DNA from: a virus
Taxonomy: Duplodnaviria > Heunggongvirae > Uroviricota > Caudoviricetes
DNA: 64,000 nucleotides
IMG/VR virus record: IMGVR_UViG_3300010348_000547
Coordinates: 566 to 64,565 of that record
Direction: 5' to 3' (one strand)
In this document: positions 4,181-39,791 of the stretch, in pieces
Position numbering within the stretch: the stretch's first letter is position 1
Layout: each line of letters opens with the position of its first letter
The notes under the pieces: model-generated
The model's database searches: none
Told to the model about the DNA's origin: nothing
What the model saw: the letters and a program-made list of their open reading frames with translations, nothing else
Made by a program: the position numbers and the translations under genes

Positions 4181-4299
4181 GAAAGATAGCTTTTATAATA
4201 GTGTATTGGTTAGCCGTAGAAACATGGCGTTCATGGCTATTCTATAGTGAAGAACATAGACGAGTAGGAACTTATTACACAAACATTTTAGTACCATGA
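4177..4299 (+). CDS. 40-aa hydrophobic peptide (not in the ORF track)
   Basis: The TTG start overlaps the upstream stop (TTGA) and the TGA stop overlaps the terL start (ATGA). Translation: MRKIAFIIVYWLAVETWRSWLFYSEEHRRVGTYYTNILVP. Confidence 0.5.
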   Translation: MRKIAFIIVYWLAVETWRSWLFYSEEHRRVGTYYTNILVP

Positions 4300-6518
4300 G
4301 TAATCATTATATAGAAATACCTACTTGGGAAAACGGTCAATGGAGTACTACCACCTTTGATACAATGGAAGAGTTCAGAGACTTCCTTCTTCCTCTGTTC
4401 AAGATTCCAGGAGAATATGGCTTTGATGAAACTGCCTTTGAGTTTAATGCTCAAGCTCGTCAGTTTACCAAAACCGGTGGAAATTCTGGAGGTGGTTATT
4501 ACTGCCCTTATCCTGAGGGAAGTAAAGACTTCCGTACATACTGGAACTTTGAAAAACAGAAATGTAGAAACGGTGTTCTTTACAAGGGTAAGCATAACAT
4601 GTGGTATCTCCCTAGAGAATACTACATGTGGATTAACTTCCTCCCTATCAATGATAAGGTGAAAAAGAAGTTTGACTTCCCATCTGTATGGGACAGTCAG
4701 TATCATATGGCTCTATATGAGCTACTAGCAGAGCTGCATTACATGCACTGTTCTGTTTTAAAGAAACGTCAGTTTGGTTCTAGTTATTATCACATGGCCA
4801 AACTAATCAATCAGATATGGTTTGAGGAAACACCTATTTTGAAAATTGGTGCTTCGCTAAAGGACTATATCAACGAGAAAGGTTCATGGAAATTCTTAAC
4901 TGAGTATAAGTCTTTCCTTGACGATAAGACGGCATGGTACCGCCCAATGAATCCGGGTAAAGTACTTATGTGGCAACAGCAAATTGAAGATACTACACCG
5001 GATGGTCGTACAACATATAAAGGTTTAAAAGGTACTCTGCAAGGTGTGAGTTTTGAACAAAGTGATACAACCGGTGTCGGTGGTGGTATCAGAATCTTCT
5101 TCTATGAGGAAGCTGGGGTAGCACCTACTATGGATAAAACAGTTGAGTACTTATTCCCTGCACTTCAGTTAGGACAAGTAACTACTGGTATTTTTATTGC
5201 TGCGGGAACGGTGGGTGACTTGGATGCATGTGAACCATTAAAGCATATGACCTACCACCCAAGAGTCAATAGCATTTATCCAGTAACAACTAACCTAATT
5301 GATGACAAGGGAACTATTGGAGAGTCAGGTTTGTTTATTCCGGAGCAATGGTCTATGCCGCCATATATTGACAAGTACGGAAACTCTCTTGTAGAAGAAG
5401 CTTTAAAAGCTTTAAGCGAAGATTTTGAGAAGTGGAAGAAAGAGCTTTCTCCTGAAAAATACCAGTTGCGTGTATCTCAAAGACCGCGTAATATTGGTGA
5501 AGCTTTTGCTTACCGAAAAGTATCTTTATTTCCTCAGCATTTGGTTGCTGCACAGATGAAGCGAATTGAGGAGAAAGAATACCCGTATGAGTTTATTGAC
5601 TTAACCAGAGATGCCGCAGGAAAAATTATAGCGGAACCAACCAAGAAGATTCCAATCAGCGAGTTCCCAATCTCAGTTAAAACTGAAGATAAAACAGGTG
5701 TTATTGTTGTCTATGAACGTCCTGATAAAGATGCAGCCTGGGGAACCTATTACGCATCAATTGACCCCGTGTCAGAGGGTAAAACAACAACCTCAGAATC
5801 ACTCTGTTCAATCTATGTTTACAAGAATCCGGTTGAGGTTACCCGTCACGATGGGGATAAAACTGAAACCTTCATTGAAAGAGATAAGATTGTAGCTTGT
5901 TGGACTGGTCGTTTTGATGACATCAACAAGACTCATGAACGTTTAGAGAACATAATTGAATGGTACAACGCCTGGACAGTAATAGAGAACAACGTGTCTT
6001 TATTCATTCAGTACATGATCAGCAAGCGTAAACAACGATACCTTGTACCAAAAGACCAGTTGATGTTCCTGAAAGACCTAGGCGCCAACCGAAATGTATT
6101 CCAGGAATACGGTTGGAAGAATACAGGAACCCTGTTTAAGACCAATATCCTAAGTTACCTGATTGAGTTCCTAAAAGAGGAAATCGATATCGAGACTAAG
6201 GAAGACGGTACAATTGTTAAAGTGATGTACGGAATTGAGAGAATTCCGGATATTATGGCAATGAAAGAGATGCAGGCTTATAATGACGATGTCAACGTCG
6301 ATAGGCTTGTTTCCCTTGCGGCTCTAATTGCTTTTGCAAAAGTTCAGCAAGCTAACAGGGGATACAAAAAGAGAGTTGAAACATTAAACAAGAAAGACTT
6401 GCAAAAGTCCCAAGATTTGTTTAAATTAAACAATAGCCCATTTAGGCATATTGGACATTCTAAGAGTAGCTCAAACAGTATGAGACCTCCTAGAAGTCCA
6501 TTTAAAAACATAAGATAG
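4296..6518 (+). CDS. terL: Terminase large subunit
   Basis: Walker A-like KKRQFGSSY, Walker B FFYEEAG, RNase H-fold nuclease acidic residues (ASIDPVSEG; DDVNVDRLVS). It lies directly upstream of the portal gene. Confidence 0.92.
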   Translation: MSNHYIEIPTWENGQWSTTTFDTMEEFRDFLLPLFKIPGEYGFDETAFEFNAQARQFTKTGGNSGGGYYCPYPEGSKDFRTYWNFEKQKCRNGVLYKGKHNMWYLPREYYMWINFLPINDKVKKKFDFPSVWDSQYHMALYELLAELHYMHCSVLKKRQFGSSYYHMAKLINQIWFEETPILKIGASLKDYINEKGSWKFLTEYKSFLDDKTAWYRPMNPGKVLMWQQQIEDTTPDGRTTYKGLKGTLQGVSFEQSDTTGVGGGIRIFFYEEAGVAPTMDKTVEYLFPALQLGQVTTGIFIAAGTVGDLDACEPLKHMTYHPRVNSIYPVTTNLIDDKGTIGESGLFIPEQWSMPPYIDKYGNSLVEEALKALSEDFEKWKKELSPEKYQLRVSQRPRNIGEAFAYRKVSLFPQHLVAAQMKRIEEKEYPYEFIDLTRDAAGKIIAEPTKKIPISEFPISVKTEDKTGVIVVYERPDKDAAWGTYYASIDPVSEGKTTTSESLCSIYVYKNPVEVTRHDGDKTETFIERDKIVACWTGRFDDINKTHERLENIIEWYNAWTVIENNVSLFIQYMISKRKQRYLVPKDQLMFLKDLGANRNVFQEYGWKNTGTLFKTNILSYLIEFLKEEIDIETKEDGTIVKVMYGIERIPDIMAMKEMQAYNDDVNVDRLVSLAALIAFAKVQQANRGYKKRVETLNKKDLQKSQDLFKLNNSPFRHIGHSKSSSNSMRPPRSPFKNIR

Positions 6519-6522
6519 TGTC

Positions 6523-9306
6523 ATGAAAGTATTAAACGCAATGCAGCTTAAAGCTGGCGCCAAAACAGAGTACAACAGGATGGGTAGCATTACCCAACCA
6601 ATCCAGTTCTTACCTCGTGAAGAAAAGGATGAGGAATGGTACGCCTGGAATATGGACTGGCTTGAGTGGAACGGATTAAAGCAAATCCGTAGAAATGCTC
6701 GTAGATTAATGAAAAACTACAAGCTGGCTAAAGGTGTTATTGATAAATCTGACTACCTGGTGGAAGAAGATAACGAGATGAGAGACCTTGTAGAAACTCT
6801 AATCCAGGAAGACGTAAGTGCCCTTGAATTAAAGTTCTATCCGATTATCCCTAACGTAATCAATGTATTAACTGCAGAATTTGCTAAACGTAATACCAAG
6901 GTTGTTTTTCGTGGCGTGGATGAGTTTACCTATAACGAGCAATTAGAGGCTAAACGTTCAGCAATTGAAAAGGTTCTTTACAGTCAGGCTGAGCAACGTC
7001 TTTTAATGGAAATGCTTGACCAAGGTTTAGACCCTGAAGATCCTGAAGTACAACAAAAAATGCAAGAGCAAATGAATCCAGAGAACCTTAAGACTCTTCC
7101 TGAGATTCAAAGCTTTTTTGATAAAGACTACCGTAGCTTATGTGAACAGTGGGCTACACACCAGCATAAGATTGATGAAGACCGTTTTCGTATGGATGAA
7201 CTTGAGGAAAGAGGTTTTAGAGATATGTTAATCACTGACCGTGAATTCTGGCACTTCCGTATGATGGAAGATGACTATGAGGTGGAATTATGGAATCCGG
7301 TTTTAACCTTCTACCATAAATCCCCAGATGCTCGTTACATTTCTCAAGGTAACTGGGTCGGCCGTGTGGATATGATGACTGTTGCAGACGTTATCGATAA
7401 GTACGGATACTTAATGACACAACAACAACTTGAGTCATTAGAAGCAATTTATCCAGTTCGTTCTGCTGGTTACCCACTGCAAGGTTATCAAAATGACGGT
7501 ACATACTACGATGCAACTAAAACGCATGACTGGAATACAAATATGCCCGGCCTTGCTTACCGCCAATACACATCTATGTGGGATAATTCAATTGCTCCAG
7601 GTGGAGATATTATCAACTGGATTATGGCAGAAGGAGAAGATTATGCACCGATGGGTGCTGCTTTCTTGATGCGTGTTACAACAGCTTATTGGAAGTCTCA
7701 ATGTAGAGTAGGTCACCTAACAAAGATCAGTGAATCAGGAGAAACCATTGTAGACATTGTAGATGAATCTTACAAGATTACTGATAAACCAATTTACAAC
7801 ACACAATTGTTCAAAAACAAGACTAAGAACAACTTGGTATTTGGTGAACACATTGACTGGATTTGGATTAACCAAACTATGGGTGGTGTAAAAATCGGTC
7901 CGAATATGCCTTCCTTCTGGGGAATGAATAATGCCGGTGGAATTAGCCCAATGTATCTTGGTATTAACCAAAACAAGATGGGCCCATTAAAGTATCAGTT
8001 CAAAGGAGATAGTACACTTTACGGATGTAAACTTCCAGTAGAGGGTGCTGTATTCTCTGACCGTAATACTCGCTCTACAGCAATGGTTGATTTGATGAAA
8101 CCGTTTCAAATCGGTTACAACATTGTAAACAACCAGATTGCCGATATCTTAGTAGATGAGTTAGGTACTGTAATCTTATTAGACCAAAACGCAATTCCTC
8201 GTCACTCTTTAGGTGAAGACTGGGGTAAAAACAATTTGGCTAAGGCTTACGTGGCAATGAAGAACTTCCAGATGTTACCATTGGACACAACCATTACAAA
8301 CACTGAGAATCCACTTGCTTTCCAACATTTCCAAACTTTGAACCTTGAGCAAACACAACGTATGATGTCAAGGATACAGTTAGCTAATTACTTTAAGCAA
8401 CAAGCATTTGAAGTGATTGGTTTTACTCCTCAGCGTTTAGGTCAACAGTTAGGACAAATAGATACAGCTAAAGGAACTGAACAAGCTCTTGTAGGTTCTT
8501 TTGCACAAACAGAAGTTTACTTTATTCAGCACTGTGATTATTTAATGCCTCGTGTGCATCAGATGAGAACTGACTTAGCTCAATACTATCACTCAACAAA
8601 ACCTTCATTACGCTTGCAATATATGACAACTAATGATGAAAAGGTAAACTTTGAGATGAACGGTACGGACTTACTGTTACGCGATTTAAACATCTTTGCT
8701 ACTACTCGTGCAGATCACCGTGCTATTCTTGAGCAGATGAAACAGTTAATTGTTGGTCAGAATACAACCGGAGCAACAATCTATGACCTTGGTAATGTTA
8801 TGCAGGCTGAATCTCTTTCTGAGATTAATCATGTATTAAAAGCTACTGAGAAGAAACAGCAAGCCGAGAAACAAGCTCAAATGCAGCATGAACAAGAAAT
8901 GGCTGATAAAGCTAACGAGACGGCAATCCAACAAAAACAAATGGAAATTGATGCGGATGTGCGTAAAGAAGAAATGCGTAACCGTACTACTCTATTGGCT
9001 GCAGAAATTAAAGCAGCTGGTTATGGTGCTATGCAGGATTTGAACAATAATGCTCAAAGTGATTTCATGGATGTTCTTGACCAAGTGCGCGGTACACAAG
9101 AGTTCCAGCAAACAATGAACTTCAATCAACAGAAAGAAGCTTCAAAGAATGCTGTTAATGCTGAAAAGAACGCTTTAGCTAAAGCAAAAATTGATGCACA
9201 ATTGGCTATGAAGAACACAGATTTAAAGATAGCTGAGGTGAATAAAAACCAATTTGATGTAAAAGCTGCAGCTAAAAAGAAACAAGATGCAAAAAAGAAA
9301 AAGTGA
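6523..9306 (+). CDS. Portal protein (crAss-type)
   Basis: 927 aa directly after terL. The N-terminus QPIQFLPREEKDEEWYAWNMDW resembles crAss portal N-termini, and there is a long Q/K/A-rich coiled-coil C-terminal tail. Confidence 0.85.
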   Translation: MKVLNAMQLKAGAKTEYNRMGSITQPIQFLPREEKDEEWYAWNMDWLEWNGLKQIRRNARRLMKNYKLAKGVIDKSDYLVEEDNEMRDLVETLIQEDVSALELKFYPIIPNVINVLTAEFAKRNTKVVFRGVDEFTYNEQLEAKRSAIEKVLYSQAEQRLLMEMLDQGLDPEDPEVQQKMQEQMNPENLKTLPEIQSFFDKDYRSLCEQWATHQHKIDEDRFRMDELEERGFRDMLITDREFWHFRMMEDDYEVELWNPVLTFYHKSPDARYISQGNWVGRVDMMTVADVIDKYGYLMTQQQLESLEAIYPVRSAGYPLQGYQNDGTYYDATKTHDWNTNMPGLAYRQYTSMWDNSIAPGGDIINWIMAEGEDYAPMGAAFLMRVTTAYWKSQCRVGHLTKISESGETIVDIVDESYKITDKPIYNTQLFKNKTKNNLVFGEHIDWIWINQTMGGVKIGPNMPSFWGMNNAGGISPMYLGINQNKMGPLKYQFKGDSTLYGCKLPVEGAVFSDRNTRSTAMVDLMKPFQIGYNIVNNQIADILVDELGTVILLDQNAIPRHSLGEDWGKNNLAKAYVAMKNFQMLPLDTTITNTENPLAFQHFQTLNLEQTQRMMSRIQLANYFKQQAFEVIGFTPQRLGQQLGQIDTAKGTEQALVGSFAQTEVYFIQHCDYLMPRVHQMRTDLAQYYHSTKPSLRLQYMTTNDEKVNFEMNGTDLLLRDLNIFATTRADHRAILEQMKQLIVGQNTTGATIYDLGNVMQAESLSEINHVLKATEKKQQAEKQAQMQHEQEMADKANETAIQQKQMEIDADVRKEEMRNRTTLLAAEIKAAGYGAMQDLNNNAQSDFMDVLDQVRGTQEFQQTMNFNQQKEASKNAVNAEKNALAKAKIDAQLAMKNTDLKIAEVNKNQFDVKAAAKKKQDAKKKK

Positions 9307-9352
9307 AACTAGCGTTATAATGCGGAAAATTTCACATGTCAGAGATATACAG

Positions 9353-9394
9353 GCAAATTTATAAAGTTTATTTGCATATTTTTGTTATATTATA
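9353..9394 (+). promoter_or_regulatory. Promoter region of the head operon
   Basis: Contains an AAAGTTTA half-site (9363-9370), a Bacteroidota -7 box match TATTTTTG (9377-9384) and TATATTATA (9386-9394). Confidence 0.5.
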
Positions 9395-9432
9395 TATGTC
9401 AGTCCAACAAAAACCAACCAACAATTTATAAC

Positions 9433-10752: not shown

Positions 10753-10795
10753 ACAACAATAAAAACAAGTATAAACCCTAAAAACAAAAACAGAA

Positions 10796-12421
10796 ATGAG
10801 CACTCCAGTTTTAAACAACGGTCTCTTCTTACGCGACACGAACTATCAAGGTAGTTCACATGTTGATTCATATCACATGATGAATATGTTGAAGGACGCT
10901 GAGCCTATGGATATGGGACCAGTAGACATTTGGGCAATGACCCAAAAAGTTGAAATGCCTCTTTACCAATTATCATCTTTTGGTGGTAAGAACGTAATCA
11001 TGGTAGACAATGCACGCGGTGAGTGGAAATGGCAAACTCCGGTTAGTCAAGACCTTCCATACATCCTTGAAGACATTGAGCCACAAAACCTTACTAAAGG
11101 TATTGACGGTACAACCTTCAAAATCAAAATCAACAAGCGTGAATTTGGTCACGGTGATATCATCACTTATGACAAATACAACGGTGTTGAGATGTACATC
11201 ACTGCTGATGATATCTTACCTTTAGGTGACGGTTTCATCTACACTGTACAGTTGACAAACAACGACAACTACAAGTTCTTAGACAACAAGTATTTGTCAC
11301 CACAAACAAAATTATTCCGTAAAGGTTCGGCTCGTGGAGAATACGGTGAGCGTTTCTCTGATATCCGTACTCAAGCTGGATTCCGCGAGTTCTATAACTT
11401 CGTAGGTGGTTCAGAAGCACATGTTCACTATTCTATCAGCTCTCGTGCTGACATGATGATCAAAGGTGGAATGAATGCTGACGGAACAGTTCCTGTAACT
11501 GAAATCTGGAAGAACTTTGACAAGTCGTTAGACCCGTCAATCACTTCTATCAACGACATCGCTTCTAAGATGGGTAAAGACTACTTGAAGCGTGCAGTAG
11601 GAAATGGTACTTTAACACGTACTTTCTTGACTACAATGGAAGCAGCTCACTTAACCAAAATCGCAACTGACATCGAGACTTACTTAATGTGGGGTCATGG
11701 AGGTCGCGTTAAACAAGATGGACCGGATGATATCCGTTTATCTGTTGGTTTATGGAAGCAGTTAGATAACTCTTTCAAACGCGTGTACAACAAATCTAAC
11801 TTCTCGTTAGAGTTGTTCCGTGGTGAGATCTACAACTTCTACGCTGGTCGTGTGGAGTTCCAAGGTCCAGACCCTAAACGTCAATTAATCGTACAAACCG
11901 GTATGGGTGGTATGAGATTAGTAAACGAGGCTATCAAGCGTGAAGCTGTTAACTCAGGTTTAGTAATCCAAGCTGCTGCTAATAACGGTATCGGAGCTAT
12001 CTCTGGTCAAGGTATGGACTTAAACTTCGGTTTTGCGTTCACATCTTACGTGATTCCGTTCTTAGCGAATGTGAAGTTCGTGTTAAACCCAGCGTTTGAC
12101 AACTTACACACAAACGACATCGAGAACCCAATCATTGATGGAAATCCGTTGTCTTCTTACAGCTTCATCATTTTCGATATCACTGATACAGGAAATGACA
12201 ACATTTATATGTTGAAGTTATCTTGGGATAACCAATTGAAGTGGTGGTACCAAAACGGTACGATGGACTACATGGGAAGAACTCAAGGGTTCAACTCTTC
12301 AGGTCAGTTCAACGGTTACCGTGTGTACATGACACAAACAATGCCGGCTATCTGGGTAAAAGACCCAACCAAGGTATTAAAAATTGTGATGAGAAACCCA
12401 ATCACAGGTGGATCATTCTAA
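10796..12421 (+). CDS. Major capsid protein (crAss-like, HK97 fold inferred)
   Basis: 541 aa in terL-portal-scaffold-MCP order. It has the strongest high-expression codon bias in the window (ttc, aac, atc, cgt) and is followed by a strong terminator. Confidence 0.88.
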   Translation: MSTPVLNNGLFLRDTNYQGSSHVDSYHMMNMLKDAEPMDMGPVDIWAMTQKVEMPLYQLSSFGGKNVIMVDNARGEWKWQTPVSQDLPYILEDIEPQNLTKGIDGTTFKIKINKREFGHGDIITYDKYNGVEMYITADDILPLGDGFIYTVQLTNNDNYKFLDNKYLSPQTKLFRKGSARGEYGERFSDIRTQAGFREFYNFVGGSEAHVHYSISSRADMMIKGGMNADGTVPVTEIWKNFDKSLDPSITSINDIASKMGKDYLKRAVGNGTLTRTFLTTMEAAHLTKIATDIETYLMWGHGGRVKQDGPDDIRLSVGLWKQLDNSFKRVYNKSNFSLELFRGEIYNFYAGRVEFQGPDPKRQLIVQTGMGGMRLVNEAIKREAVNSGLVIQAAANNGIGAISGQGMDLNFGFAFTSYVIPFLANVKFVLNPAFDNLHTNDIENPIIDGNPLSSYSFIIFDITDTGNDNIYMLKLSWDNQLKWWYQNGTMDYMGRTQGFNSSGQFNGYRVYMTQTMPAIWVKDPTKVLKIVMRNPITGGSF

Positions 12422-12424
12422 CCC

Positions 12425-12458
12425 AAAAAAGGGGGACTAATCCTCCCCCTTTTTTTTT
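12425..12458 (+). terminator. Rho-independent terminator after the MCP gene
   Basis: AAAAAA-GGGGGA-ctaatcc-TCCCCC-TTTTTTTTT. Confidence 0.9.
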
Positions 12459-12533
12459 CTTTACAAGGTGAAACAGACGAGGGATTCAGCGTCCCGGTAA
12501 AGAGCCAATATTAACATACAAAATAACAAAATC

Positions 12534-13140: not shown

Positions 13141-13171
13141 TCTATATAAACCAACATAAACCAACAAAAAA

Positions 13172-15647: not shown

Positions 15648-15656
15648 TATATTAAA
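15648..15656 (+). promoter_or_regulatory. TATATTAAA promoter-like box upstream of the 459-aa gene
   Basis: The same 9-mer (TATATTAWA) occurs at 9386, 22919 and 26328, each in an intergenic gap before a structural gene. Confidence 0.45.
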
Positions 15657-15690
15657 TCATATGTTTATAAACCCCTAAAAAAGAAAAATC

Positions 15691-17070: not shown

Positions 17071-17093
17071 TCAGGAAACAGAGAATAAACACT

Positions 17094-17132
17094 AAAAGGA
17101 GAGTGAGAGTTAATCTCTCCTCTCCTTTTTTT
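17094..17132 (+). terminator. Rho-independent terminator
   Basis: AAAAGGAGAG(T)GAGAG-ttaat-CTCTCCTCTCCTTTT-TTT. Confidence 0.9.
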
Positions 17133-17155
17133 ATTAATATCAAACAGTAAAAAAG

Positions 17156-17707
17156 ATGGCACAGCACGTATTAAGTCTTGAAGTCCCAGATACATTAAAT
17201 ACCAAGATCCTGAGAGTTCAGGATACTTCAATTTATAATCCGCAAATAGCGGCTACCTGTCAATTATTGCAGGTGACTTTACCTGGATTCAACACTCCAG
17301 TACAGTTTACAGACCAACAAATCCAACCGGGTTTTTCTTTAAACCTTACTGCGTGTGACCTTCAGATTCAGAACGCAGGCTGTGGTACAACTTATACTGA
17401 CCTTCCGGACGGTATTTATATTATTAAGTACAGTGTAGCACCTAATGAAATTGTTTACGTTGAGTACAATCATTTAAGAGTTACTGCTGCGTTAAATAAA
17501 ATACAATCCGTATATTGTGGGCTGGATTTAGGAACATGTGATCCACCGGCAAAGAAGAAAGAAACGCTTGAGAAGATTCGTCTAATTCAGCAGTACATCA
17601 AGTCTGCCAAAGCTTTGGTTGAATATTGTCACCAGCCAAGCAAAGGAATGGACCAGTACAACTATGCGATGAAGCTATTGAGTAAATTAACATGTTCAAC
17701 CTGTTAG
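17156..17707 (+). CDS. Virion structural protein (tail hub or fibre-attachment candidate)
   Basis: 183 aa, beta-rich N-terminus (LPDGIYIIKYSVAPN) and helical C-terminus ending CSTC. It is the first gene of the fibre cluster. Confidence 0.5.
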   Translation: MAQHVLSLEVPDTLNTKILRVQDTSIYNPQIAATCQLLQVTLPGFNTPVQFTDQQIQPGFSLNLTACDLQIQNAGCGTTYTDLPDGIYIIKYSVAPNEIVYVEYNHLRVTAALNKIQSVYCGLDLGTCDPPAKKKETLEKIRLIQQYIKSAKALVEYCHQPSKGMDQYNYAMKLLSKLTCSTC

Positions 17708-17734
17708 TTATAAACCAATAAAACCAACAATATC

Positions 17735-17911
17735 ATGCATGCAAAATGTCCAAACTGTCACTCGAATCTAAGCTGCGTATGCCAAAAGCGTACTGCAAGT
17801 AATGGCGCACAATGTTGCACGTTATGCTTAGCTGGCTATGAAGCCGAATTAAAAAAGAAAACTAACGGAGGTCAAGCAACCAGCGTGTTGTACACTCCAC
17901 CTAAAAAATAG
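17735..17911 (+). CDS. 58-aa Cys-rich peptide (not in the ORF track)
   Basis: MHAKCPNCHSNLSCVCQKRTASNGAQCCTLCLAGYEAELKKK..., with an AAACCAACAA leader and 7 Cys in CxxC/CxC/CCxxC patterns. Confidence 0.7.
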   Translation: MHAKCPNCHSNLSCVCQKRTASNGAQCCTLCLAGYEAELKKKTNGGQATSVLYTPPKK

Positions 17912-17919
17912 AGATTAAA

Positions 17920-20900
17920 ATGGCTAAGGTGATTAAATCCGTATCAGTACCAATCCAACAGAATTGTGGATGTCCTCCTGAATATATCGATGTAGGTAAT
18001 GGAATCTGTCAGAAGACAGAATCCGTAAATCCTACGCCACCTAGTCAACCAATCTCAATCGTACCGATTACACCAAATCCAGCGTATATTCTGTATGGTG
18101 CAATCATCTACGAAGACATAACATTAAAACAATGGCCAATATTAGGCTCTCCTCAAGGAGGGCTTAATTGGACATTAGCCGCCAATACTATCATTCCATC
18201 ATCAGGTGTTTCTAACCCTTATCTTCCAGGAGGAGCACCTTATACGTCTCTGAATCCGGGAACAGATGGTGTTAATTATACAGGTGGTATTGGAACCAAC
18301 GGAGAGCACGCAAAGGTGATTTTACCTGCTCCTGCTGGTTGGCCAGGAATTCCTGTTACTGGTACACCATACAACGGCTCACCTCTTGTAGCATTACGTG
18401 AAAGTACTATTACAGGAGGTGTGCTTAACTATGGTATTGGTGCTGGTGTATTTCCTCAGCAACAAATTGTAAGTCCTCCATGGGTAGGCGGTGGTACCAA
18501 TTGGTTAGACCAAAGAGGTATTCGTCCCGAAGATTGTTCAGGAGAAAATAGATGCTCAAACTCATTAGCAGATGACTGCTATAAATGTAGTAAATGGTAT
18601 GGTTTTACACATTGTATAACCATCAATACTACTAAAACTTATTATGTGGCTGCCGCTGCAAACAATGCCTTCAGATTTAAAATGAACGGTATTCTGGTTA
18701 TGGAATTTAACCTGGCAGACGGTATGGAGCCAACCTTAGATACGCTTAGTATTTTCCCTATCACTTTACCAGCGGGTACGCATGTGTTCCAAGTGGACAT
18801 GTTGAATTACTCAGGAGATGGTGGTATGGGCTTCGAAATATATGACTGCTCGTTAGCACAACTTCAAGGAGTTGGTAGCTTAGCTGAGTTGTCAACTTAT
18901 ACTGTATTCTCGGCTAAAGACCGTGTAGGTGGAACGTTTGATGTAAGTAGTTATGCTGAACAAGGTTATACATGTCCTCCAGGATATGTATATTCTGCAT
19001 GTAACGGAACACCAAGTTGTGTAAAAATTACAACAGCTGACCCTGCACCTTTCAATGTAAAATTGACTCCGTGCTGTGGTGATACTTCAAAAGTTCATAT
19101 TGTACCTCATGATCTGTTTTTGGTAAGTCCTATCCTTCCAGGTTGGACAGCTTGTATTGAAGACATTGACCCAACCATTGGGTGCTGGTTAACTGAAGAA
19201 ACTTGTGAAGCTGTAACCTATGCAGGTTCATTCACAGTTTTAGGTACATTTGCAGATTGCTTCAAATGTTTAGCAGAATGTAAACCTTGTGATGATAGTT
19301 GTAAAAGCTGTCCTCCAGGTTATGCAATGAGACCTGATGGAACTTGTGAGGGCTTAGAATCTGTACCTGCAACACAAAACCCAACTACGTATATTGCAGG
19401 TTTAGGTTCTTGGGCACAAGGTTTCTATGGCTCAAATGCCGGTCAATTTTATGAAGACATCACATTAAAACCATGGCCAATAAAAGCAGTAAATGGACCA
19501 TGTTCAACACTTCCTGCAGGTACTTGTAGTATTTTACAAGATAACACAAGCTTACCTTTAATAGTAACCAATCAAGTAGCTAATCCTATTTGGGGAGGAG
19601 ATGGTGGTGCAGTCACTAATTATCGTTTAAAAGTGTCAGGTTTATGGACAACGGTTGCTCCGTTACCTATAAATGAATGGATTGGTTTTGCATATTGTGT
19701 AACTCTTACCCAAAGCAAAACTTACTTTATTGCTTTTGCCGTAGATGACATTGCTAAAATTTACCTAGACGGTGTTTTAATGATTGACCACTCAGCCGTT
19801 GGTTGGTCGTTCAGAACTTGGAAGATTATTCCAGTTACTCTTACAGCAGGTACACACATCATTGATGGACGTGTTCTAAACTCAGGAAGTTCTGCAACCT
19901 TTGGTTTTGAAATCTATGATGCAACCCTTGCTCAGTTATTAGCTGTAGCTGCACCAGGTGATCTTGACCCATACATTGTATTCAGTACAGCTGACTACAT
20001 TGGACAGGCTTGGCAAACTGGAGAAAACTCAGGTTACTCTTGTCCTGATGGGTATTCATTAAATACCTGTGATGGTATTGTTTGTAGCCGTATTGTTACG
20101 GTACCTGCAATTGATTGCTGTGTTGCGATTAAAGATTGTACTACTAATGAAGAAGTTTACTTGGTTACGCCAGGTGATAATTCTCATGGTTTACCTGATA
20201 TCAAAACTTTAGTTGGTAATGGTACTATTGGTAAGCTTTGTCTTAATACGGGTTGTGTTGAAGGCTGCTTCTATGTAGAGGAAACAGAGAGCAGTTGCGT
20301 AACAGCAATTCCTTATGAGAATGTAATCAGCTTTACACAATATCCAGATTGTCCAACTTGTTATAAAAAATGCTATATACTAACCAACTGTCTTGACTCA
20401 GAAGAGACTATGGTTACGGATACTGACTTATCTCAGTACCTTAATTATGTAATTGCAATAAAAGGTTGCAAAGACAAATGCTGGATTGTTACAGAAACTG
20501 ATAATTGTGAAGATTGTTCAGGTCCTGTAATAATTTTAAAGGCATGTCCTCCAACAGGAACTGTACAAGAAAAGTGTCTTTTTACTATTCCTATCATCAA
20601 TGAAGACAACGAGTTAATAACTTTGACTGTTACAATTGATGGAGTTGATTATGCAATAGAAAACATAGACGGTTTACTGCAAGTGTTAAATGACTTGAAT
20701 GCTTTAAACTTAGGTACATGGAGTCCTGCTACAATTTCTGGTACAAATTACGTAACCGTTATTGGTGACCATAATTATACAAGTTTATGTGCTACTATTA
20801 AATCAGGAGAAGGACTAAACACAACTTGTTCAGAACCGGTTTGTAACACTGTTGAAAGCGCTTCAAACTGTACTTATGATTTTACAGATGCTCGCTTTGA

Positions 20901-21450
20901 TCAACCATGTTATTGGAAAATGACTTGGATAGTAGATGGGACTACTATTCCCCTTACACCACTACCTACGACTGTGCAAGAAATTGCGGATGCTATAACT
21001 GCTTTAGGTTTTGGTTCAGCTACTGTATCTGGTAATAGTCTTACACTTATAGGTCCTTACCAATACAGTGTTATCACCATGAGAATGGATTCACCAATGT
21101 GTGAAGTAAGACCTCCAAATGAGGTGATTACGCCTACTTGCCTTGTTGTACCTGTAGAAGGCGGTCCAGACTGTGCATGTTGTTTACCTAAACCAGAAGT
21201 AGTTGTAAAACCCCTTTTGAATCCAAGACCTGTTGACCCAGGCTATACAACACCGGGTTGTTCTCCTGAATACACAGAAAAAGTAAACTGTGCTTTTGGA
21301 GATGTGATGAATAAGAAAATGCTTTCTGCTCGTTATGGTCTAACCACTTGTTGCGAAGATCCTGACACAGATTGGGAAATTAAAAAAGAGCTTCTTGACT
21401 TTGAAGCCATTAAAGATACTAATTTAACACCTTGTAATAATGAGCTGTAA
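17920..21450 (+). CDS. Cys-rich fibre or receptor-binding protein with two PA14-like domains
   Basis: Two homologous units (YEDITLK[Q/P]WPI...W[Y/I]GF..C.T....KTY...[NN/DD]....NG/DG...GTH....N......GFEIYD..LAQL), each bracketed by CPPGY/CPDGY-type motifs. Confidence 0.65.
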   Translation: MAKVIKSVSVPIQQNCGCPPEYIDVGNGICQKTESVNPTPPSQPISIVPITPNPAYILYGAIIYEDITLKQWPILGSPQGGLNWTLAANTIIPSSGVSNPYLPGGAPYTSLNPGTDGVNYTGGIGTNGEHAKVILPAPAGWPGIPVTGTPYNGSPLVALRESTITGGVLNYGIGAGVFPQQQIVSPPWVGGGTNWLDQRGIRPEDCSGENRCSNSLADDCYKCSKWYGFTHCITINTTKTYYVAAAANNAFRFKMNGILVMEFNLADGMEPTLDTLSIFPITLPAGTHVFQVDMLNYSGDGGMGFEIYDCSLAQLQGVGSLAELSTYTVFSAKDRVGGTFDVSSYAEQGYTCPPGYVYSACNGTPSCVKITTADPAPFNVKLTPCCGDTSKVHIVPHDLFLVSPILPGWTACIEDIDPTIGCWLTEETCEAVTYAGSFTVLGTFADCFKCLAECKPCDDSCKSCPPGYAMRPDGTCEGLESVPATQNPTTYIAGLGSWAQGFYGSNAGQFYEDITLKPWPIKAVNGPCSTLPAGTCSILQDNTSLPLIVTNQVANPIWGGDGGAVTNYRLKVSGLWTTVAPLPINEWIGFAYCVTLTQSKTYFIAFAVDDIAKIYLDGVLMIDHSAVGWSFRTWKIIPVTLTAGTHIIDGRVLNSGSSATFGFEIYDATLAQLLAVAAPGDLDPYIVFSTADYIGQAWQTGENSGYSCPDGYSLNTCDGIVCSRIVTVPAIDCCVAIKDCTTNEEVYLVTPGDNSHGLPDIKTLVGNGTIGKLCLNTGCVEGCFYVEETESSCVTAIPYENVISFTQYPDCPTCYKKCYILTNCLDSEETMVTDTDLSQYLNYVIAIKGCKDKCWIVTETDNCEDCSGPVIILKACPPTGTVQEKCLFTIPIINEDNELITLTVTIDGVDYAIENIDGLLQVLNDLNALNLGTWSPATISGTNYVTVIGDHNYTSLCATIKSGEGLNTTCSEPVCNTVESASNCTYDFTDARFDQPCYWKMTWIVDGTTIPLTPLPTTVQEIADAITALGFGSATVSGNSLTLIGPYQYSVITMRMDSPMCEVRPPNEVITPTCLVVPVEGGPDCACCLPKPEVVVKPLLNPRPVDPGYTTPGCSPEYTEKVNCAFGDVMNKKMLSARYGLTTCCEDPDTDWEIKKELLDFEAIKDTNLTPCNNEL

Positions 21451-22234
21451 TACGTGCAATAAACCAGTAACTGTATGTTGCTGTCCAAAACCCGCACCTG
21501 TACCTGTACCGGTGCCAGAACCTACATGTCTTAATCCGATTGTAGTGTTATTAGATGAGGCTAATGATTGTTTCAAAGATCAGCCTTGTCAAAATCAGAA
21601 TTGTGAGAGTCCTGTAAAAGTATGGCTTACATCTGTAATAACAAATTCTCCACAGAATCCTGTTCAAAATCCGGAAATATTCCAAGAGTATTTTGCAGGT
21701 GTTTTACAAGGAGGTATTGTCATGTCGAATCAAGGATTGTGTTGTTCACAATGTTGTGAAGACAAAGCTTACATTTTAGCAGGAGTGGATGGTAAGACTA
21801 TTGATACCTACTTTGATGGTGGTGGTACTGTAAACTGTTGTGCTAATTTCATTGGACCAATGCAAATACAATCAGATTTGATTGACTTTTATGACCTTTA
21901 CAACATCCGTCCTTATCCTAACAAATGTGATAACAACTTTGAAGTATGTGTAGCTCATTTGGCTGCAAATACGGATAACATGAATAGCTTAATAGCTATG
22001 GGTATTTTTGAAACAGTAGGTGGCTTAGGTCAATCTGAAATCTGTAATATCGTAGATGTTATGCTTTCAGCTGGGTTTACACCAACCATGATTCATGATA
22101 CATTTGAACGTTTACTAACAAACGGATTAGTAACATCATGTGTTAATGGTCAAATCTACATAGGTGGTGTTGAAGGCTATAATGATTTCATAAAAATTTA
22201 TGGCCGACTTGTTGAAGGAGGCGGAAAAGTATAA
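21440..22234 (+). CDS. Cys-rich virion protein, paralog A
   Basis: 264 aa beginning MSCNTCNKPVTVCCCP; the C-terminal ~170 aa align with the next gene. Confidence 0.7.
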   Translation: MSCNTCNKPVTVCCCPKPAPVPVPVPEPTCLNPIVVLLDEANDCFKDQPCQNQNCESPVKVWLTSVITNSPQNPVQNPEIFQEYFAGVLQGGIVMSNQGLCCSQCCEDKAYILAGVDGKTIDTYFDGGGTVNCCANFIGPMQIQSDLIDFYDLYNIRPYPNKCDNNFEVCVAHLAANTDNMNSLIAMGIFETVGGLGQSEICNIVDVMLSAGFTPTMIHDTFERLLTNGLVTSCVNGQIYIGGVEGYNDFIKIYGRLVEGGGKV

Positions 22235-22255
22235 TAACCTTTTAATTAATGTAAC

Positions 22256-22885
22256 ATGGCACGAGTAAAAAATGAAGTAGTATATCCAATTGAGCAACCT
22301 TGGTATCCCTCAATTTCAAATGAAACACCTGGCAGTTTTTGTCAAGAGTTTACAAACCTGTTAACAACAGGAACAGTTACAACAAATGTAAATGGTGCAC
22401 AATGCTGTCCAGAGTGTGGTATTTATGCAATTGCAAATGCAGCTATAATGGCTAATTTCTTACGAAATATAGACTCTGAGTTATTAACAGGTTGTTGTTA
22501 CAGCATACACTCATCTGCAGAAGCCTACGCAGAATTTAAAAAAGACACTGAAGAATTGTTTACAGTACTTCAAATGACTACTTGTAGCACTAATCTTTTA
22601 GAATGTGTTAATGGTGTAAAGAGTTCCCTAGGTAAAGCTTGTTGTGATACACTTGAAACTATTGGTGTAGTGGAAATTGGAGGACTAAATCCTGATCCTA
22701 GTCAATCTCAATTATGCACATTGTTGAGTTATTTGAAGAGTATTCAACCAGCTTTAACGCCAGACCAAATTTGTAGTTGTTTAACATCAATATTAACATA
22801 CGGAATAGTTGTACAATGTTTACCAAATGGTCAAATTTTTACAGGAGGTGTAGATGCCTTTTTAGATTACCTAAACACAAAATAA
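22256..22885 (+). CDS. Cys-rich virion protein, paralog B
   Basis: 209 aa. CCPEC..CCYS..CSTNLLEC..GVVEIGGL..QSQLC..GIVVQCLPNGQIFTGGVDAF parallels paralog A. Confidence 0.7.
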   Translation: MARVKNEVVYPIEQPWYPSISNETPGSFCQEFTNLLTTGTVTTNVNGAQCCPECGIYAIANAAIMANFLRNIDSELLTGCCYSIHSSAEAYAEFKKDTEELFTVLQMTTCSTNLLECVNGVKSSLGKACCDTLETIGVVEIGGLNPDPSQSQLCTLLSYLKSIQPALTPDQICSCLTSILTYGIVVQCLPNGQIFTGGVDAFLDYLNTK

Positions 22886-22929
22886 GCTGTTGTGTTTGGA
22901 ATTCAGCAAAAAAATTAATATATTATATC

Positions 22930-24483
22930 ATGAAACCACTCAACGCAAAAGAAACAGGATGTAATCCAATTTCGTCAAATTGTGTCATCTGGCAAGGTCC
23001 AGATATTCCTTGCATGAGTTTGTGCAAAGGAGACACTGTCAGCGATGTTACATATAAGCTAGCTACTGAGCTATGCAAAATTATGGACGTTCTAAAAGTG
23101 GATGCATATGATCTTTCTTGCTTTAACCTTACGTCATGTAAGCCGGCAGACTTTCAAGAACTATTTCAGTTCATCATTGAACGTCTTTGCCACGTAGAGC
23201 AATGTAGTGGATGTGCTCCTGGATGTGGAACGAATCCAACCCCAACTCCTACTCCTACACCTGGCGGATGCCCAGACTGTATGATGAACATAGCAGAATG
23301 CTTCTATTTCACAAACGGCTTAGGAGACGAGGTTCACTCTCTTCAAATGCAAGATTATGTTACCGCATTAGGTAACAAGATTTGTGCAATTATCCAAGCA
23401 ACTGGTCTGAACTCTACAGCAATTGGTAACCAAAGTGCAAGAATTTCTAATGTAGAAACACAAGTAACTCAAATTCAGGAGAACCCTCCGGTTCAATTCC
23501 AGAATATGAACGTGTCTTGTATTTTACCTGTTACTCCAAATGGTTATCCTTTGGACGTAATCGTGTTACAATTAGAAAGTCAGTTCTGCCAGTTAAGAGC
23601 CGCTACAGGAGATGTATCTACAATCCAAGCGGATATTGCTAAGCAATGTGCAGGATTGAATGATGCTCCTCGTTTAGCTGGTTCAGGAACTATGAGTTCT
23701 ATACCAGGCTGGACAACTACAGTAAGTAACATGGCTGATTCACTTGGAAACTTGTGGTTGACTATTTGCGATATTCGTGCTTCTATCTTAAATTTACAAG
23801 CTAATCAACCAAGCGGTTGTAGCTCAATTGTATTGAATTTAGCAGCAAATATATCAGGAGGTAACTTAGTGTTGTTCGTAACAGGAACCGTTCCTGCTGG
23901 TTTTGCACAATGTACTGGTTCAACTCCATTAGCTATTACAGATAGCTTTGGTGGTGCAGCTACTGTAACAATTGACTTGTTGACAATCTTAAATCAACCA
24001 GGTGGTTTCAGTATGCCTTTACCGGGTACAATTAACCCAGCTGCAAATATTACAGTGGCTATCCCATACTGCTTAAATGATGCTTTAAACAGCACAAGCT
24101 GTTCAGGATATTTAAGTACTGTAATCAATAACACAATCACTTGTCCACCGTTATCAGTTGATGCAAATGCAGATGAGACTAAATTAGATTACTCATTTAT
24201 TTCTCTGAACGGTAGCTACACATACACAATACAATTGTATGACGAGGCTGGATTAACAATGATTGCTAGCCAAACTCAATCAACTGCTGTAATTTCTCCA
24301 ATTGCGGGAACCTTTACAGGATTGACAGCATGTACAAATTACAAAGTGAGAATATCAATTATTCCAACTGGATGTGGTACTTGTACTCCAACTATTTGTA
24401 CATTTGTGGATGGTTCAACAGGTTTACCTACAACGTGTACACCACCTGATAGCGTAACTGCAAGTAACGTTTTTGTGCCATAA
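22930..24483 (+). CDS. Tail fibre-like protein with coiled coil and C-terminal fibronectin type III domain
   Basis: Start moved to ATG 22930 (MKPLNAKETGC). It has the SSNCVIWQGPDIPC..GDTVSDV.YKL motif, a coiled-coil segment and the FN3 signature FTGLTACTNYKVRI. Confidence 0.65.
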   Translation: MKPLNAKETGCNPISSNCVIWQGPDIPCMSLCKGDTVSDVTYKLATELCKIMDVLKVDAYDLSCFNLTSCKPADFQELFQFIIERLCHVEQCSGCAPGCGTNPTPTPTPTPGGCPDCMMNIAECFYFTNGLGDEVHSLQMQDYVTALGNKICAIIQATGLNSTAIGNQSARISNVETQVTQIQENPPVQFQNMNVSCILPVTPNGYPLDVIVLQLESQFCQLRAATGDVSTIQADIAKQCAGLNDAPRLAGSGTMSSIPGWTTTVSNMADSLGNLWLTICDIRASILNLQANQPSGCSSIVLNLAANISGGNLVLFVTGTVPAGFAQCTGSTPLAITDSFGGAATVTIDLLTILNQPGGFSMPLPGTINPAANITVAIPYCLNDALNSTSCSGYLSTVINNTITCPPLSVDANADETKLDYSFISLNGSYTYTIQLYDEAGLTMIASQTQSTAVISPIAGTFTGLTACTNYKVRISIIPTGCGTCTPTICTFVDGSTGLPTTCTPPDSVTASNVFVP

Positions 24484-24499
24484 TTAAAACATTAAAGAG

Positions 24500-25021
24500 A
24501 TGAGTTGTAAAACTAAAAAATGTGGATGTACGGATGCTGGGTTAACAACCCCAGCTCCGTGCCCATGCGAAACAGTAGAATGCCAAAACCCTGACGTATG
24601 TCCAGAAACATTCAGTGATAACTGTGTGATTCATACAGGAGACACTATTGTGGACATGAACATCTTGCAAGGAGATGCTCTTACTTCTATCTTACAAAAG
24701 ATGGTAATTAAGATGACTCAGCCACTTTGCGTACCGGGTACTGCTTGTGCTTCTGCAATAAACTTCAAGTCCACTTCAATCGGTAGCACGTCTGCTAAGT
24801 TTGTTTGGGACCCTGTTTCATCAACAGGTACAACTCAATACATACTTCAGTACAGAAAACCTTCTGCAGGTGTATGGACAAGTAATCCAATTGTATCTGA
24901 TGCAAAAGATACATTATCTGGCTTAGAGCCAAATACACAGTACTATGTACGTGTAAACACTAAGTGTGGTGGTATTTCAACATGCTACTCAGTAACATTA
25001 TTAATAACGACAAAAGCATAA
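24500..25021 (+). CDS. Small fibre-associated protein with FN3 domain
   Basis: SDNCVIHTGDTI..QGDALTSILQKM repeats the motif of the previous gene. FN3 features: FVWDPVS, YILQYRK, LSGLEPNTQYYVRV. Confidence 0.7.
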   Translation: MSCKTKKCGCTDAGLTTPAPCPCETVECQNPDVCPETFSDNCVIHTGDTIVDMNILQGDALTSILQKMVIKMTQPLCVPGTACASAINFKSTSIGSTSAKFVWDPVSSTGTTQYILQYRKPSAGVWTSNPIVSDAKDTLSGLEPNTQYYVRVNTKCGGISTCYSVTLLITTKA

Positions 25022-25024
25022 TAA

Positions 25025-26209
25025 ATGGCACATCCAAATACATTAAGATTGCAGTTTACTCCAAACTATACAGGTAACCACCGTGTGTGTTACCGTTTGG
25101 GTATTGCAGGTCCGTTCGACTGCTCAACAATTGTAGCAGGCGTAGTAGGCGTTCCACAAACAGTGGATATTCCTTTTGACTATACCGTAATTGATTTAAC
25201 TTGTAACAGTGATGTTATCACAGGTTATGTGCAACCGGTATGTGTTCCAGAAAGCTGTCCTTACTTGAGAACAGACTTTCTCGTTAGTTATACACCATAC
25301 TGTCGTTTATGGACAGTTGAGTGTACAGACGCTCCTGTTGAGACTGTTGGTGCAACTTCCGTAGGAAGCGGTTATACACCTGGAGCAATTATCCCTGTAA
25401 TCTTTACAGGAGGTGGTGGCGGTTTTGGTGCTACAGCAGATGCGTACATTGCTGATGCTGCCGTTGGTTCAATCGGAATCAATAATCCAGGAACAGGTTA
25501 TACAGATGGAACATTCTACAATGTACCTACTGTACCAGCGGGTCCTCAACCAGCTGTTGGTACCGGATTAGTGCTTGCTCAAGTTGAAATATTAGGAGGA
25601 ACTGTTAACTCATTCTCCTTTGCACAAAATTCTGCAGATGCAGGAGCAGGTTATGTAAATGGTGATACGTTCACTTTAAACATCCCAGGTAACCCTGGTA
25701 ATGGTGATATTGAGTTAGTTGCTGGTGGCGTACACTCAGGAGATGTATTATGGATTGACCTGACAAATCCAGGTTCAGGTTATACTGTAGCACCAGGAGT
25801 TTCAATAGGTGGTACAGCTGTTTTAGTAGCAACTTTAATGCAATGTCCAGCATATGACCTTGGAACAGACTGTTCAGGTTTTAATGTAGGCTTACAGCTT
25901 CAAAGATCTATTGGATGGAAATATTTCATCTGTCAAGCCATTGGTCCGGGTAACCCTTCAACTATCGATGGATGGACAGCAACTTTAGGTACCTTACCTG
26001 CTAACTGTTGTTATGCTTGTGAACAACTTGCATATACAAACTCTTCAGGAGGCGCGCTTAATGTATTCTATATCGACTATGCAACAAGAGCATGGACGTT
26101 GGTAAACGTACCTGATGGAGATACATTAACTGTTCAAATTGTACAAGGTTCTGCTTGGTTAGAAGATGGTACACCATCTGGCTCACCGTTAACAGGAACA
26201 CCTTGCTAA
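25025..26209 (+). CDS. Gly-rich beta-repeat tail fibre or spike protein
   Basis: Four G[ST/A]GY[T/V] units (VGSGYT, NNPGTGYT, AGAGYV, TNPGSGYT) typical of phage fibre shafts, with Cys-rich ends. Confidence 0.6.
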   Translation: MAHPNTLRLQFTPNYTGNHRVCYRLGIAGPFDCSTIVAGVVGVPQTVDIPFDYTVIDLTCNSDVITGYVQPVCVPESCPYLRTDFLVSYTPYCRLWTVECTDAPVETVGATSVGSGYTPGAIIPVIFTGGGGGFGATADAYIADAAVGSIGINNPGTGYTDGTFYNVPTVPAGPQPAVGTGLVLAQVEILGGTVNSFSFAQNSADAGAGYVNGDTFTLNIPGNPGNGDIELVAGGVHSGDVLWIDLTNPGSGYTVAPGVSIGGTAVLVATLMQCPAYDLGTDCSGFNVGLQLQRSIGWKYFICQAIGPGNPSTIDGWTATLGTLPANCCYACEQLAYTNSSGGALNVFYIDYATRAWTLVNVPDGDTLTVQIVQGSAWLEDGTPSGSPLTGTPC

Positions 26210-26216
26210 AAATAAT

Positions 26217-26242
26217 GTCACGGTTTGTTGGTATAACGTGAC
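26217..26242 (+). ncRNA. Candidate structured RNA hairpin with a UGUUGGU loop
   Basis: GTCACG(G)TT-tgttggtat-AACGTGAC, 8 nt after the fibre gene stop and directly before a terminator. Confidence 0.4.
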
Positions 26243-26254
26243 TGACAGGTAATC

Positions 26255-26288
26255 GGCCTCAGAGAAATCTGGGGCCTTTTGCTTTTTA
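26255..26288 (+). terminator. Rho-independent terminator closing the fibre cluster
   Basis: GGCCTCAGA-GAAA-TCTGGGGCC (one G-U pair, GNRA loop) followed by TTTTGCTTTTT. Confidence 0.88.
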
Positions 26289-26295
26289 CATTTTA

Positions 26296-26336
26296 AAAGT
26301 TTATTTTTAAACTTTAAAAAAAATCCGTATATTAAA
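26296..26336 (+). promoter_or_regulatory. Inverted-repeat operator plus TATATTAAA box upstream of the tail operon
   Basis: AAAGTTTA-tttt-TAAACTTT (26296-26315) and TATATTAAA (26328-26336). Confidence 0.5.
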
Positions 26337-26353
26337 GTAGGGAAACAATTATC

Positions 26354-39731: not shown

Positions 39732-39760
39732 GTTTAAACTTTAAAAGTTTATTAAACTTT
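39730..39760. promoter_or_regulatory. Tandem AAAGTTTA/TAAACTTT inverted repeats upstream of the giant-cargo operon
   Basis: AAGTTTAAACTT palindrome (39730-39741) followed by AAAGTTTA-t-TAAACTTT (39744-39760). Confidence 0.5.
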
Positions 39761-39791
39761 ACAGATTTTTTTAATACATTTACAGCACAAG

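Follow-up and report, generated by a model that had tools for sequence, protein, structure and literature searches.

A conserved RNA hairpin at the end of the tail operon probably tunes the translation of virion genes in an uncultured family of lake crAss-like phages

The c4 antisense RNA of phages P1 and P7 (immI) pairs through exposed, non-contiguous segments with two boxes in a leader and blocks the ribosome site. It is processed from a transcript that it shares with other genes and has a single target operon, icd-ant, upstream of which c4 is located. One review places c4 among the phage small RNAs, together with cis-antisense RNAs and prophage small RNAs that act on host genes, and the passages of it that were searched hold nothing resembling an anti-leader element that a whole phage family has at the 3' end of a late operon (PMC12197685). 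Small RNAs are also derived from 3' untranslated regions (3'UTRs), as with CisR, which comes from the 3'UTR of prtV and acts on the cep mRNA of CTX-phi (PMC13250501). In Bacteroides, GibS and other small RNAs use single-stranded seeds to pair with A-rich initiation regions that have no Shine-Dalgarno site (PMC7366714). Translation in Bacteroidia proceeds without Shine-Dalgarno pairing and depends on leaders that are A-rich and unstructured (PMC6847099, PMC7797042). In crAss-like phages, the host RNA polymerase transcribes the middle and late genes (bioRxiv 10.1101/2020.03.07.982082). How Bacteroidota and their phages regulate genes after transcription is poorly understood, since Bacteroidota ignore Shine-Dalgarno sites.

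Here, a hairpin encoded by a phage of this kind is described. The DNA that was analyzed, called the window throughout, is 64,000 nucleotides long and corresponds to bases 566-64565 of a 128,565-bp IMG/VR virus record. Its gene order is crAss-like, with the large terminase (4296-6518), the portal (6523-9306), the major capsid protein (10796-12421, assigned with PHROGs) and then tail genes and giant cargo proteins, all encoded on the + strand. No tRNAs were found within the 64 kb. Beyond the window, the two ends of the record (bases 1 to about 164 and 128402-128565) share about 164 nt that differ at one position, pointing to a terminal repeat or to an assembly that is circularly permuted; IMG/VR lists the record as linear. 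The hosts appear to be Bacteroidota, and Bacteroidota-type TTTG and TAnnTTTG boxes can be read directly in the promoters.

The hairpin is located at 26217-26242 on the + strand and is supported by folding and by covariation. Its 6-bp stem is formed by GTCACG (26217-26222) and CGTGAC (26237-26242) and displays a 14-nt loop, GTTTGTTGGTATAA (26223-26236), the core of which, TTTGTTGGT, is antisense to ACCAACAAA (box 1). A 12-nt linker separates the hairpin from the stem of an intrinsic terminator (26255-26287, + strand), identified by folding and by a terminator search, that has a 9-bp stem, a GAAA tetraloop and a T-run; its stem-loop (26255-26276) is followed by TTTTGCTTTTT, and no other strong terminator match was found near the hairpin. 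The 91-nt stretch that includes both elements folds at -30.6 kcal/mol (z = -4.5 against 200 shuffles). An earlier note on this DNA, made from the letters alone, had described the stem followed by a GNRA terminator and had not recognized the element. The structure was confirmed, and no family in Rfam scored above threshold for the hairpin or reached the gathering score anywhere in the window.

Where does the transcript that carries this hairpin come from? The hairpin starts 7 nt past a stop codon in the window and 1-14 nt past a stop codon in relatives. No conserved promoter was found upstream of it, and neither the upstream gene nor the upstream sequence is conserved among relatives. Given a stop codon 7 nt away and no conserved promoter of its own, an origin from the 3' end of an mRNA fits. 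Strong + strand terminators in the late region occur only at about 12450, 17126 and 26277; thus, the hairpin closes the operon that starts with the 183-aa and 58-aa genes and extends through the 394-aa gene (17156-26209, + strand), which is delimited by the terminators at about 17126 and 26277 and by tight gene gaps. It is the 3' untranslated end of this last late (tail) operon that carries the hairpin. The strong terminators at 12420-12460 and 17090-17135 split the late region into three units, and the latter (GGAGAGTGAGAG...CTCTCCTCTCC and a T-run) is kept upstream of the 183-aa gene in most relatives.

Past the terminator, outside the RNA and at the module boundary, the next gene module begins with a promoter-like block (AAAAGTTTATTTTTAAACTTT ... 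GTATATTAAAG, 26295-26337, + strand) that is conserved in relatives. An AAAGTTTA(A/T)... element followed by (G)TATATTA precedes several module-leading genes (26295-26337, 9340-9395, 39735-39790 and genome positions 28-60), and the block is probably the tripartite middle/late promoter reported for crAss-like phages (bioRxiv 10.1101/2020.03.07.982082). The capsid and 459-aa genes have a common leader of their own, (T)TATAAACCC(C)TAAAAA (10760-10795 and 15655-15690), which is kept in 13 genomes and never contains AACCAAC; a second class of leader or promoter seems to serve the most abundant proteins. Yet another leader family, ACCAACTCAAAC(A)CCAACTCA, precedes other genes in G006, G007 and G013, many of its copies being on the opposite strand in G006, and has one copy in G000 (about 102362, - strand).

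The hairpin is conserved across a phage family. Neither the hairpin locus (blastn) nor the downstream 194-aa protein (tblastn) had a match in the phage collection searched. The 194-aa protein, which is encoded directly downstream, was used as the handle for finding relatives and gave 80 IMG/VR loci with 41-65% identity. Among related IMG/VR contigs, 22 of 23 have the hairpin, always as one copy per genome and in the same position, directly 3' of the last tail gene and just before the terminator. The sole contig lacking it is 49% complete. It first seemed absent from six genomes (G008, G009, G010, G012, G018 and G020), in which an additional, inserted gene separates the 194-aa gene from the terminator. 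A covariance model made from 37 instances finds exactly one copy in the window and matches 40 of 60 loci. The three closest relatives have a near-identical hairpin, loop and linker, although the upstream gene is different and the terminator stems are rewritten; between relatives the terminator stems are wholly different, yet their pairing is kept in all. The hairpin stem of distant relatives is replaced as well (ATCACG/CGTGAT, GTCATG/CATGAC, GTCAGG/CCTGAC, GGAGG/CCTCC, AGAGGG/CCCTCT, GTTACAG/CTGTGAC and ACTGG/CCAGT), and despite this repeated replacement TTTGTTGGTT is retained in the loop. Loop length ranges from 10 to 14 nt, the loop core TTTGTTGGT(T) is essentially invariant and the TTT flanking the core is near-invariant in 41 aligned rows. 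GTTGGT is identical in 41 of the 41 rows, a figure to be read with the caveat that the instances were gathered by searching for that hexamer.

A conserved loop on a varying stem in related phages had been named by the earlier note as a check on its proposal, and this pattern was found: all six stem pairs are altered on both sides among 40 distinct relatives in a model-fitted alignment. Standard pairs fill 85% of the alignment cells, compared with 57% after shuffling and 28-45% when partners are slid, and the covariation score is 0.73 against 0.23 in the control (0 of 500 shuffles reach the observed value), in an alignment that is biased towards structure and in which a few short stems are misplaced. 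When each sequence was folded on its own under constraint, the same hairpin resulted. In the MAFFT alignment and the first covariance-model alignment, some short stems of the GGAGG/CCTCC type were out of register, so counts of G.U versus A.C were unreliable and the per-sequence constrained folds were used instead. These folds are more stable for the + strand in 30 of 38 hairpins and for the other strand in eight; when the margin is at least 2 kcal, the + strand is favoured in 12 hairpins and the other strand in one. This stability, together with the T-run on the + strand, argues that the functional strand is the + strand, as RNA. The hairpin is a real structured RNA family that appears to be undescribed, set apart by its sequence and its Rfam score. 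Three further features were considered and rejected: a pseudoknot of the loop UUUGUU with an AACAAA flank (a fold that a subset of relatives would allow but the window would not), kissing of the hairpin loop with the terminator loop (no complementarity) and a short reverse-strand open reading frame (ORF) after the leader-like copy (not conserved).

The partner proposed for the loop is a short tag in the leaders of a few genes. In the window, ACCAACAA occurs 11 times against 4.35 expected, and none of 100 shuffles reaches 11. The earlier note had claimed that the loop is antisense to a motif in four gene leaders, and the copies at 439, 9417, 13160 and 17723 were all verified; they end 1, 8, 4 and 4 nt before the ATG codons at 448, 9433, 13172 and 17735, respectively. 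The first belongs to the leader of the wHTH gene (428-446, + strand), which reads CTGTCAGT, TAA, ACCAACAA and whose protein has a weak match to HTH_DeoR under the Pfam cut-off. The second lies in the gap between portal and capsid, in the leader of the 439-aa ('scaffold') gene (9397-9424, + strand: TGTCAGTC, CAACAAAAACCA, ACCAACAA), whose start is the ATG at 9433 and not, as the ORF list has it, the TTG at 9382. In the leader of the 339-aa gene (13150-13167, + strand), the copy stands in tandem with ACCAACAT, the near-copy at 13150 that the earlier note had reported. The leader of a 58-aa Cys peptide (17714-17730, + strand) has ACCAATA and then ACCAACAA; this gene, 27 nt past the 183-aa gene, belongs to the operon closed by the hairpin and has its own TTATAAACC box. 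No match was found in PHROGs for the wHTH, 439-aa, 339-aa and 58-aa proteins, nor in Pfam above its cut-offs for these four and the 108-aa protein.

The tag marks the same genes in relatives. Thirteen whole contigs were fetched and their genes called crudely. AACCAAC is found 5-15 times per genome in the 40 nt upstream of starts in 12 of the 13 genomes with whole-contig gene calls, compared with 0.3-0.9 times in shuffled leaders, and the enrichment before starts is about 10-fold in nine of the ten genomes that were scored for it. It is present in 12 of 13 orthologous leaders of the 416-439-aa gene between portal and capsid, in tandem copies in 11 of 13 orthologues of the 337-346-aa gene, in 9 of 11 orthologues of the 53-62-aa Cys peptide and on the wHTH gene in about half of the genomes. 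In the same orthologue comparison it was never found on the capsid, portal, terminase, 194-aa and other genes. Taken with the unstructured A-rich leaders of Bacteroidia, the promoter boxes seen here place the tag in short 5' leaders just upstream of the start, where loading of the 30S subunit is expected. An upstream ORF in the scaffold leader (ATG 9395, 11 codons, ATG TCA GTC ... TAA, ending 2 nt before the 439-aa gene) was rejected as a feature; neither its ATG nor its frame is conserved, so it is the nucleotides that seem to matter and not the peptide. At genome positions 78-404 and 72946-73368 (- strand), ATGTCAG ... ACCAACAA occurs within the first 10 codons of two genes, in differing frames. 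G002 retains the copy at 73344, its spacing altered by 6 nt, and this suggests that a signal at the nucleotide level reaches into coding starts.

How far does the complementarity between loop and leaders exceed chance? When at least 3 G/C are required, matches of at least 7 nt number 81 over 13 genomes, compared with 12.3 +/- 5.5 (maximum 32) for shuffled loops, although the genomes are related and the count does not amount to 13 independent tests. The match of GTTGG to CCAAC is about 6.6 times more frequent than with shuffled loops. By a rough estimate, made before allowing for multiple looks, the chance that a 10-nt loop holds the reverse complement of the top 7-nt leader motif is about 3e-4. 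If the G/C requirement is dropped, the 7-8-nt matches of shuffled U-rich loops to A-rich leaders are in most genomes about as frequent as those of the real loop, and the difference is not significant. With RNAduplex, the real loop and its shuffles were poorly separated against all start regions, and a 37-nt query against the whole genome gave as top matches unrelated sites with long internal loops, the 58-aa leader ranking fifth. RNAduplex was therefore considered too permissive, and contiguous-match counts were used in its place.

A second complementary segment, absent from the earlier note, lies next to the loop. This box 2 (GACTGACAGG, 26240-26249, + strand) comprises the last three bases of the stem and part of the linker and is antisense to GTCAGTC / CTGTCAG in leaders. 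Read as CTGACAGG (26242-26249), it is the antisense of CTGTCAGT (428-435); read as GACTGACA, it is that of TGTCAGTC (9397-9404). In the window's clade, GTCAGTC near the 5' end of the scaffold leader has its complement, GACTGACAG, on the 3' side of the stem. TGTCAGT has five copies in the window, counting both strands, of which three adjoin ACCAACAA, one of these three being the hairpin's own reverse strand. Seven genomes (G000, G001, G002, G005, G006, G007 and G013) have box 2 in both the hairpin and the scaffold leader, and six (G003, G004, G017, G008, G009 and G014) have it in neither. It is unaltered in the hairpins of G000, G001, G002, G005 and G006. The variants CTGGCAG in G007 and CTGACGG in G013 are A-to-G changes with which the unchanged leader still pairs through G.U wobbles. 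In a capsid-plus-portal tree, G003 and G004 are nested within the clade that bears box 2, which calls for at least one gain and one loss, each in both partners, with the loss in G003 and G004; the flank after the loss drifts to CTAACAAG and CTAATAGG. G016 breaks the co-occurrence, as it has box 2 in the hairpin and lacks it in its scaffold leader. This history of gain and loss is modest evidence, and the only evidence of a covariation-like kind, that the two segments may pair.

The folded RNA is conserved, the leader tag is conserved, and the two are complementary. From this we infer that the 3' end of the last late operon may act as an anti-leader RNA that pairs with tagged leaders and is functional, a reading to which we assign a probability of roughly 0.5. 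The hairpin and terminator would form the 3' end of the tail operon mRNA, of which a terminator-protected fragment of about 70 nt probably persists too. The single-stranded loop UUUGUUGGU would pair with the AACCAAC(AA) tag 0-25 nt before the starts of a few virion-region genes, and in the window's clade the linker GACUGACAG would add pairing with GUCAGUC at the 5' end of the 'scaffold' mRNA. Such pairing would occur in trans on several mRNAs and could also occur in cis between the 58-aa leader and the 3' end of the same operon mRNA. Base-pairing small RNAs usually have such a layout, with an accessible loop seed directly 5' of a Rho-independent terminator.

Since Bacteroidota initiate on unstructured leaders without a Shine-Dalgarno site, a leader covered by pairing would most likely load fewer 30S subunits; the stability of the mRNA might be altered instead, and stabilization through pairing at the 5' end is an alternative effect. 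The direction of regulation is proposed with less assurance than the pairing itself. A private circuit, in which AACCAAC serves as a non-Shine-Dalgarno tag for a fixed set of virion genes and a single anti-tag 3'-end RNA reads it, is put forward tentatively. Such a circuit would couple the tagged genes' output to the completion of late transcription, and the tail-operon mRNA could possibly be closed 5' to 3'. The earlier note had offered two functions for the hairpin. Its proposal of a 3'-end small RNA that tunes a gene set is favoured by the conserved loop, by the presence of the motif on the same orthologues and by the 3'-end origin, and is weakened by the clade in which leaders have changed and the loop has not. 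Its alternative of a decoy that titrates a leader-reading factor does not fit, because the + strand RNA bears the complement of the motif and not the motif itself.

A different reading is that the hairpin is a protein-binding or structural 3'-end element that acts in mRNA stability or 3' processing or gives a phage or host RNA-binding protein a handle, its match to the leaders being a by-product of a U/G-rich loop set against A/C-rich leaders. The pattern of conservation counts against simple pairing. The loop is far more conserved than the tagged leaders, and in G008, G011 and G015, where the leaders of up to six genes read AACCAAAC or AACCAAAT, it is unchanged, 6-7 bp and a bulge remaining. 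The loop variants that do exist, with TTTA- (G006), TAAA- (G013) or TTTG- (G007) before GTTGGTTT, have no mirrored change in their own leaders, and AACCAACTT in G013 is found in the hairpin only. In most of the family the cores of loop and tag are unvarying, so box 1 offers no seed-target covariation. A by-product would also agree with the tight, constant spacing between stop codon and terminator and with the near-equal performance of shuffled loops once A/U-only matches are counted. The nearest cultured relative, Leptolyngbya phage Lbo-JY46 (PP438436.1, 28% capsid identity), may retain the loop without the tag: it has a look-alike, TTTGTTGGTTG, with a terminator and only a weak A-U stem, for which homology is not established, and it has no enrichment of AACCAAC. 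What a structural element leaves unexplained is the joint gain and loss of box 2; it also sits poorly with the excess of GTTGG:CCAAC matches and the low chance estimate for the loop, and no candidate protein was identified. On balance it is rather unlikely. Lbo-JY46 is annotated as a cyanophage, yet has intergenic TAnnTTTG boxes of the Bacteroidota type and A-rich leaders without a Shine-Dalgarno site, and its gene order is crAss-like (terminase, portal, about 407 aa, capsid).

The position of the hairpin, 5-12 nt before the terminator in all relatives and at a module boundary, could instead point to a nut-like or termination-control site, at which a factor or RNA on the nascent loop would modulate the terminator 12 nt downstream and set read-through into the next module. 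However, that module has its own conserved promoter just past the terminator, so read-through is not needed; no boxA-like flank is conserved across the family; and the hairpin and terminator stem do not overlap, so no switch between alternative folds is evident. A lambda-type nut site (boxA and a short boxB with a GNRA-like pentaloop) was rejected, the loop here being 10-14 nt and U/G-rich and its flanks not conserved. Termination control is thus improbable. There is similarly little probability that the loop targets a host RNA (an mRNA leader, small RNA, tRNA or rRNA segment, with AACCAACAAA-type sites) in place of phage leaders. An invariant loop over phages with G+C contents of 29 to 43%, a spread from which they probably infect different hosts, would fit a universally conserved partner, but a host target would explain neither box 2 nor why the phages conserve a tag on orthologous genes. 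Mimicry of 16S rRNA or of the tRNA D-loop was also considered, and we know of no accessible matching rRNA segment. Finally, it is highly improbable that the locus works as DNA, as a palindromic operator or a single-stranded hairpin for replication or packaging with AACCAAC/GTTGGTT as a double-stranded protein site in both orientations: the reverse strand of the hairpin is leader-like (CTGTCAGTC ... ACCAACAA) and the wHTH gene has the tag in its own leader, but the stem arms covary freely (GGAGG/CCTCC, AGAGGG/CCCTCT, ACTGG/CCAGT and others), a change that would not be tolerated in a protein operator, G.U pairs favour the + strand markedly in 12 hairpins against one, and the hairpin is fused to a + strand terminator.

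Should the anti-leader pairing be true, these phages would provide a compact, natural and widely conserved case in which a set of genes is tagged for translation without a Shine-Dalgarno site and one small RNA controls the whole tagged set. The 7-10-nt tag and the RNA of about 70 nt form a testable pair for work in Flavobacterium and a candidate regulatory part. Were the pairing to fail, there would still be a new structured RNA family, strongly covarying in its stem and invariant in its loop, in an abundant environmental phage group.

Several described systems resemble the hairpin in part. As in c4, a phage-encoded RNA exposes two segments that face two short leader boxes, the function being a prediction here. 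Unlike c4, the hairpin has several unlinked predicted targets, stands at the 3' end of an operon, would act in a host without Shine-Dalgarno sites and has no sequence similarity to it. With small RNAs derived from 3'UTRs it shares a seed just 5' of the parental terminator, the lack of its own promoter and a predicted action in trans on initiation regions. Three of the features by which such RNAs are recognized are found here: a conserved single-stranded seed, a terminator directly after a coding gene without a separate promoter, and complementarity to initiation regions that is above chance when at least 3 G/C are required. However, 3'UTR-derived small RNAs such as CisR are host-encoded and Hfq-dependent, whereas a lytic-type phage encodes the hairpin, the predicted targets of which are the phage's own virion genes in a phylum that lacks Hfq. 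GibS offers the same phylum-level setting and a single-stranded seed, but it is a host gene in its own right, has two seeds, acts on metabolic targets and has neither sequence nor structural homology to the hairpin. Cuckoo/CcsR (alpha-r14) RNAs also present a conserved loop on covarying stems that is complementary to a leader element common to many mRNAs; they are multi-hairpin arrays with CCUCCUCCC anti-Shine-Dalgarno loops in Alphaproteobacteria, in contrast to a single hairpin that would read a private, non-Shine-Dalgarno tag. The best Rfam match, BjrC68 (RF02353), is similar in length and likewise has an upstream hairpin and a GC-rich terminator; membership was rejected at 22.7 bits against a gathering score of 39, with the alignment on the terminator and the loop region unaligned. 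The phage Ro60-partner type (a clamp helix and ACAGCAA) was rejected as well, the flank here being TGACAGGTAA and ACAGCAA following the stem in 0 of 41 rows. As a kind, the anti-leader element appears to be already known, and it is the hairpin family itself that appears to be new.
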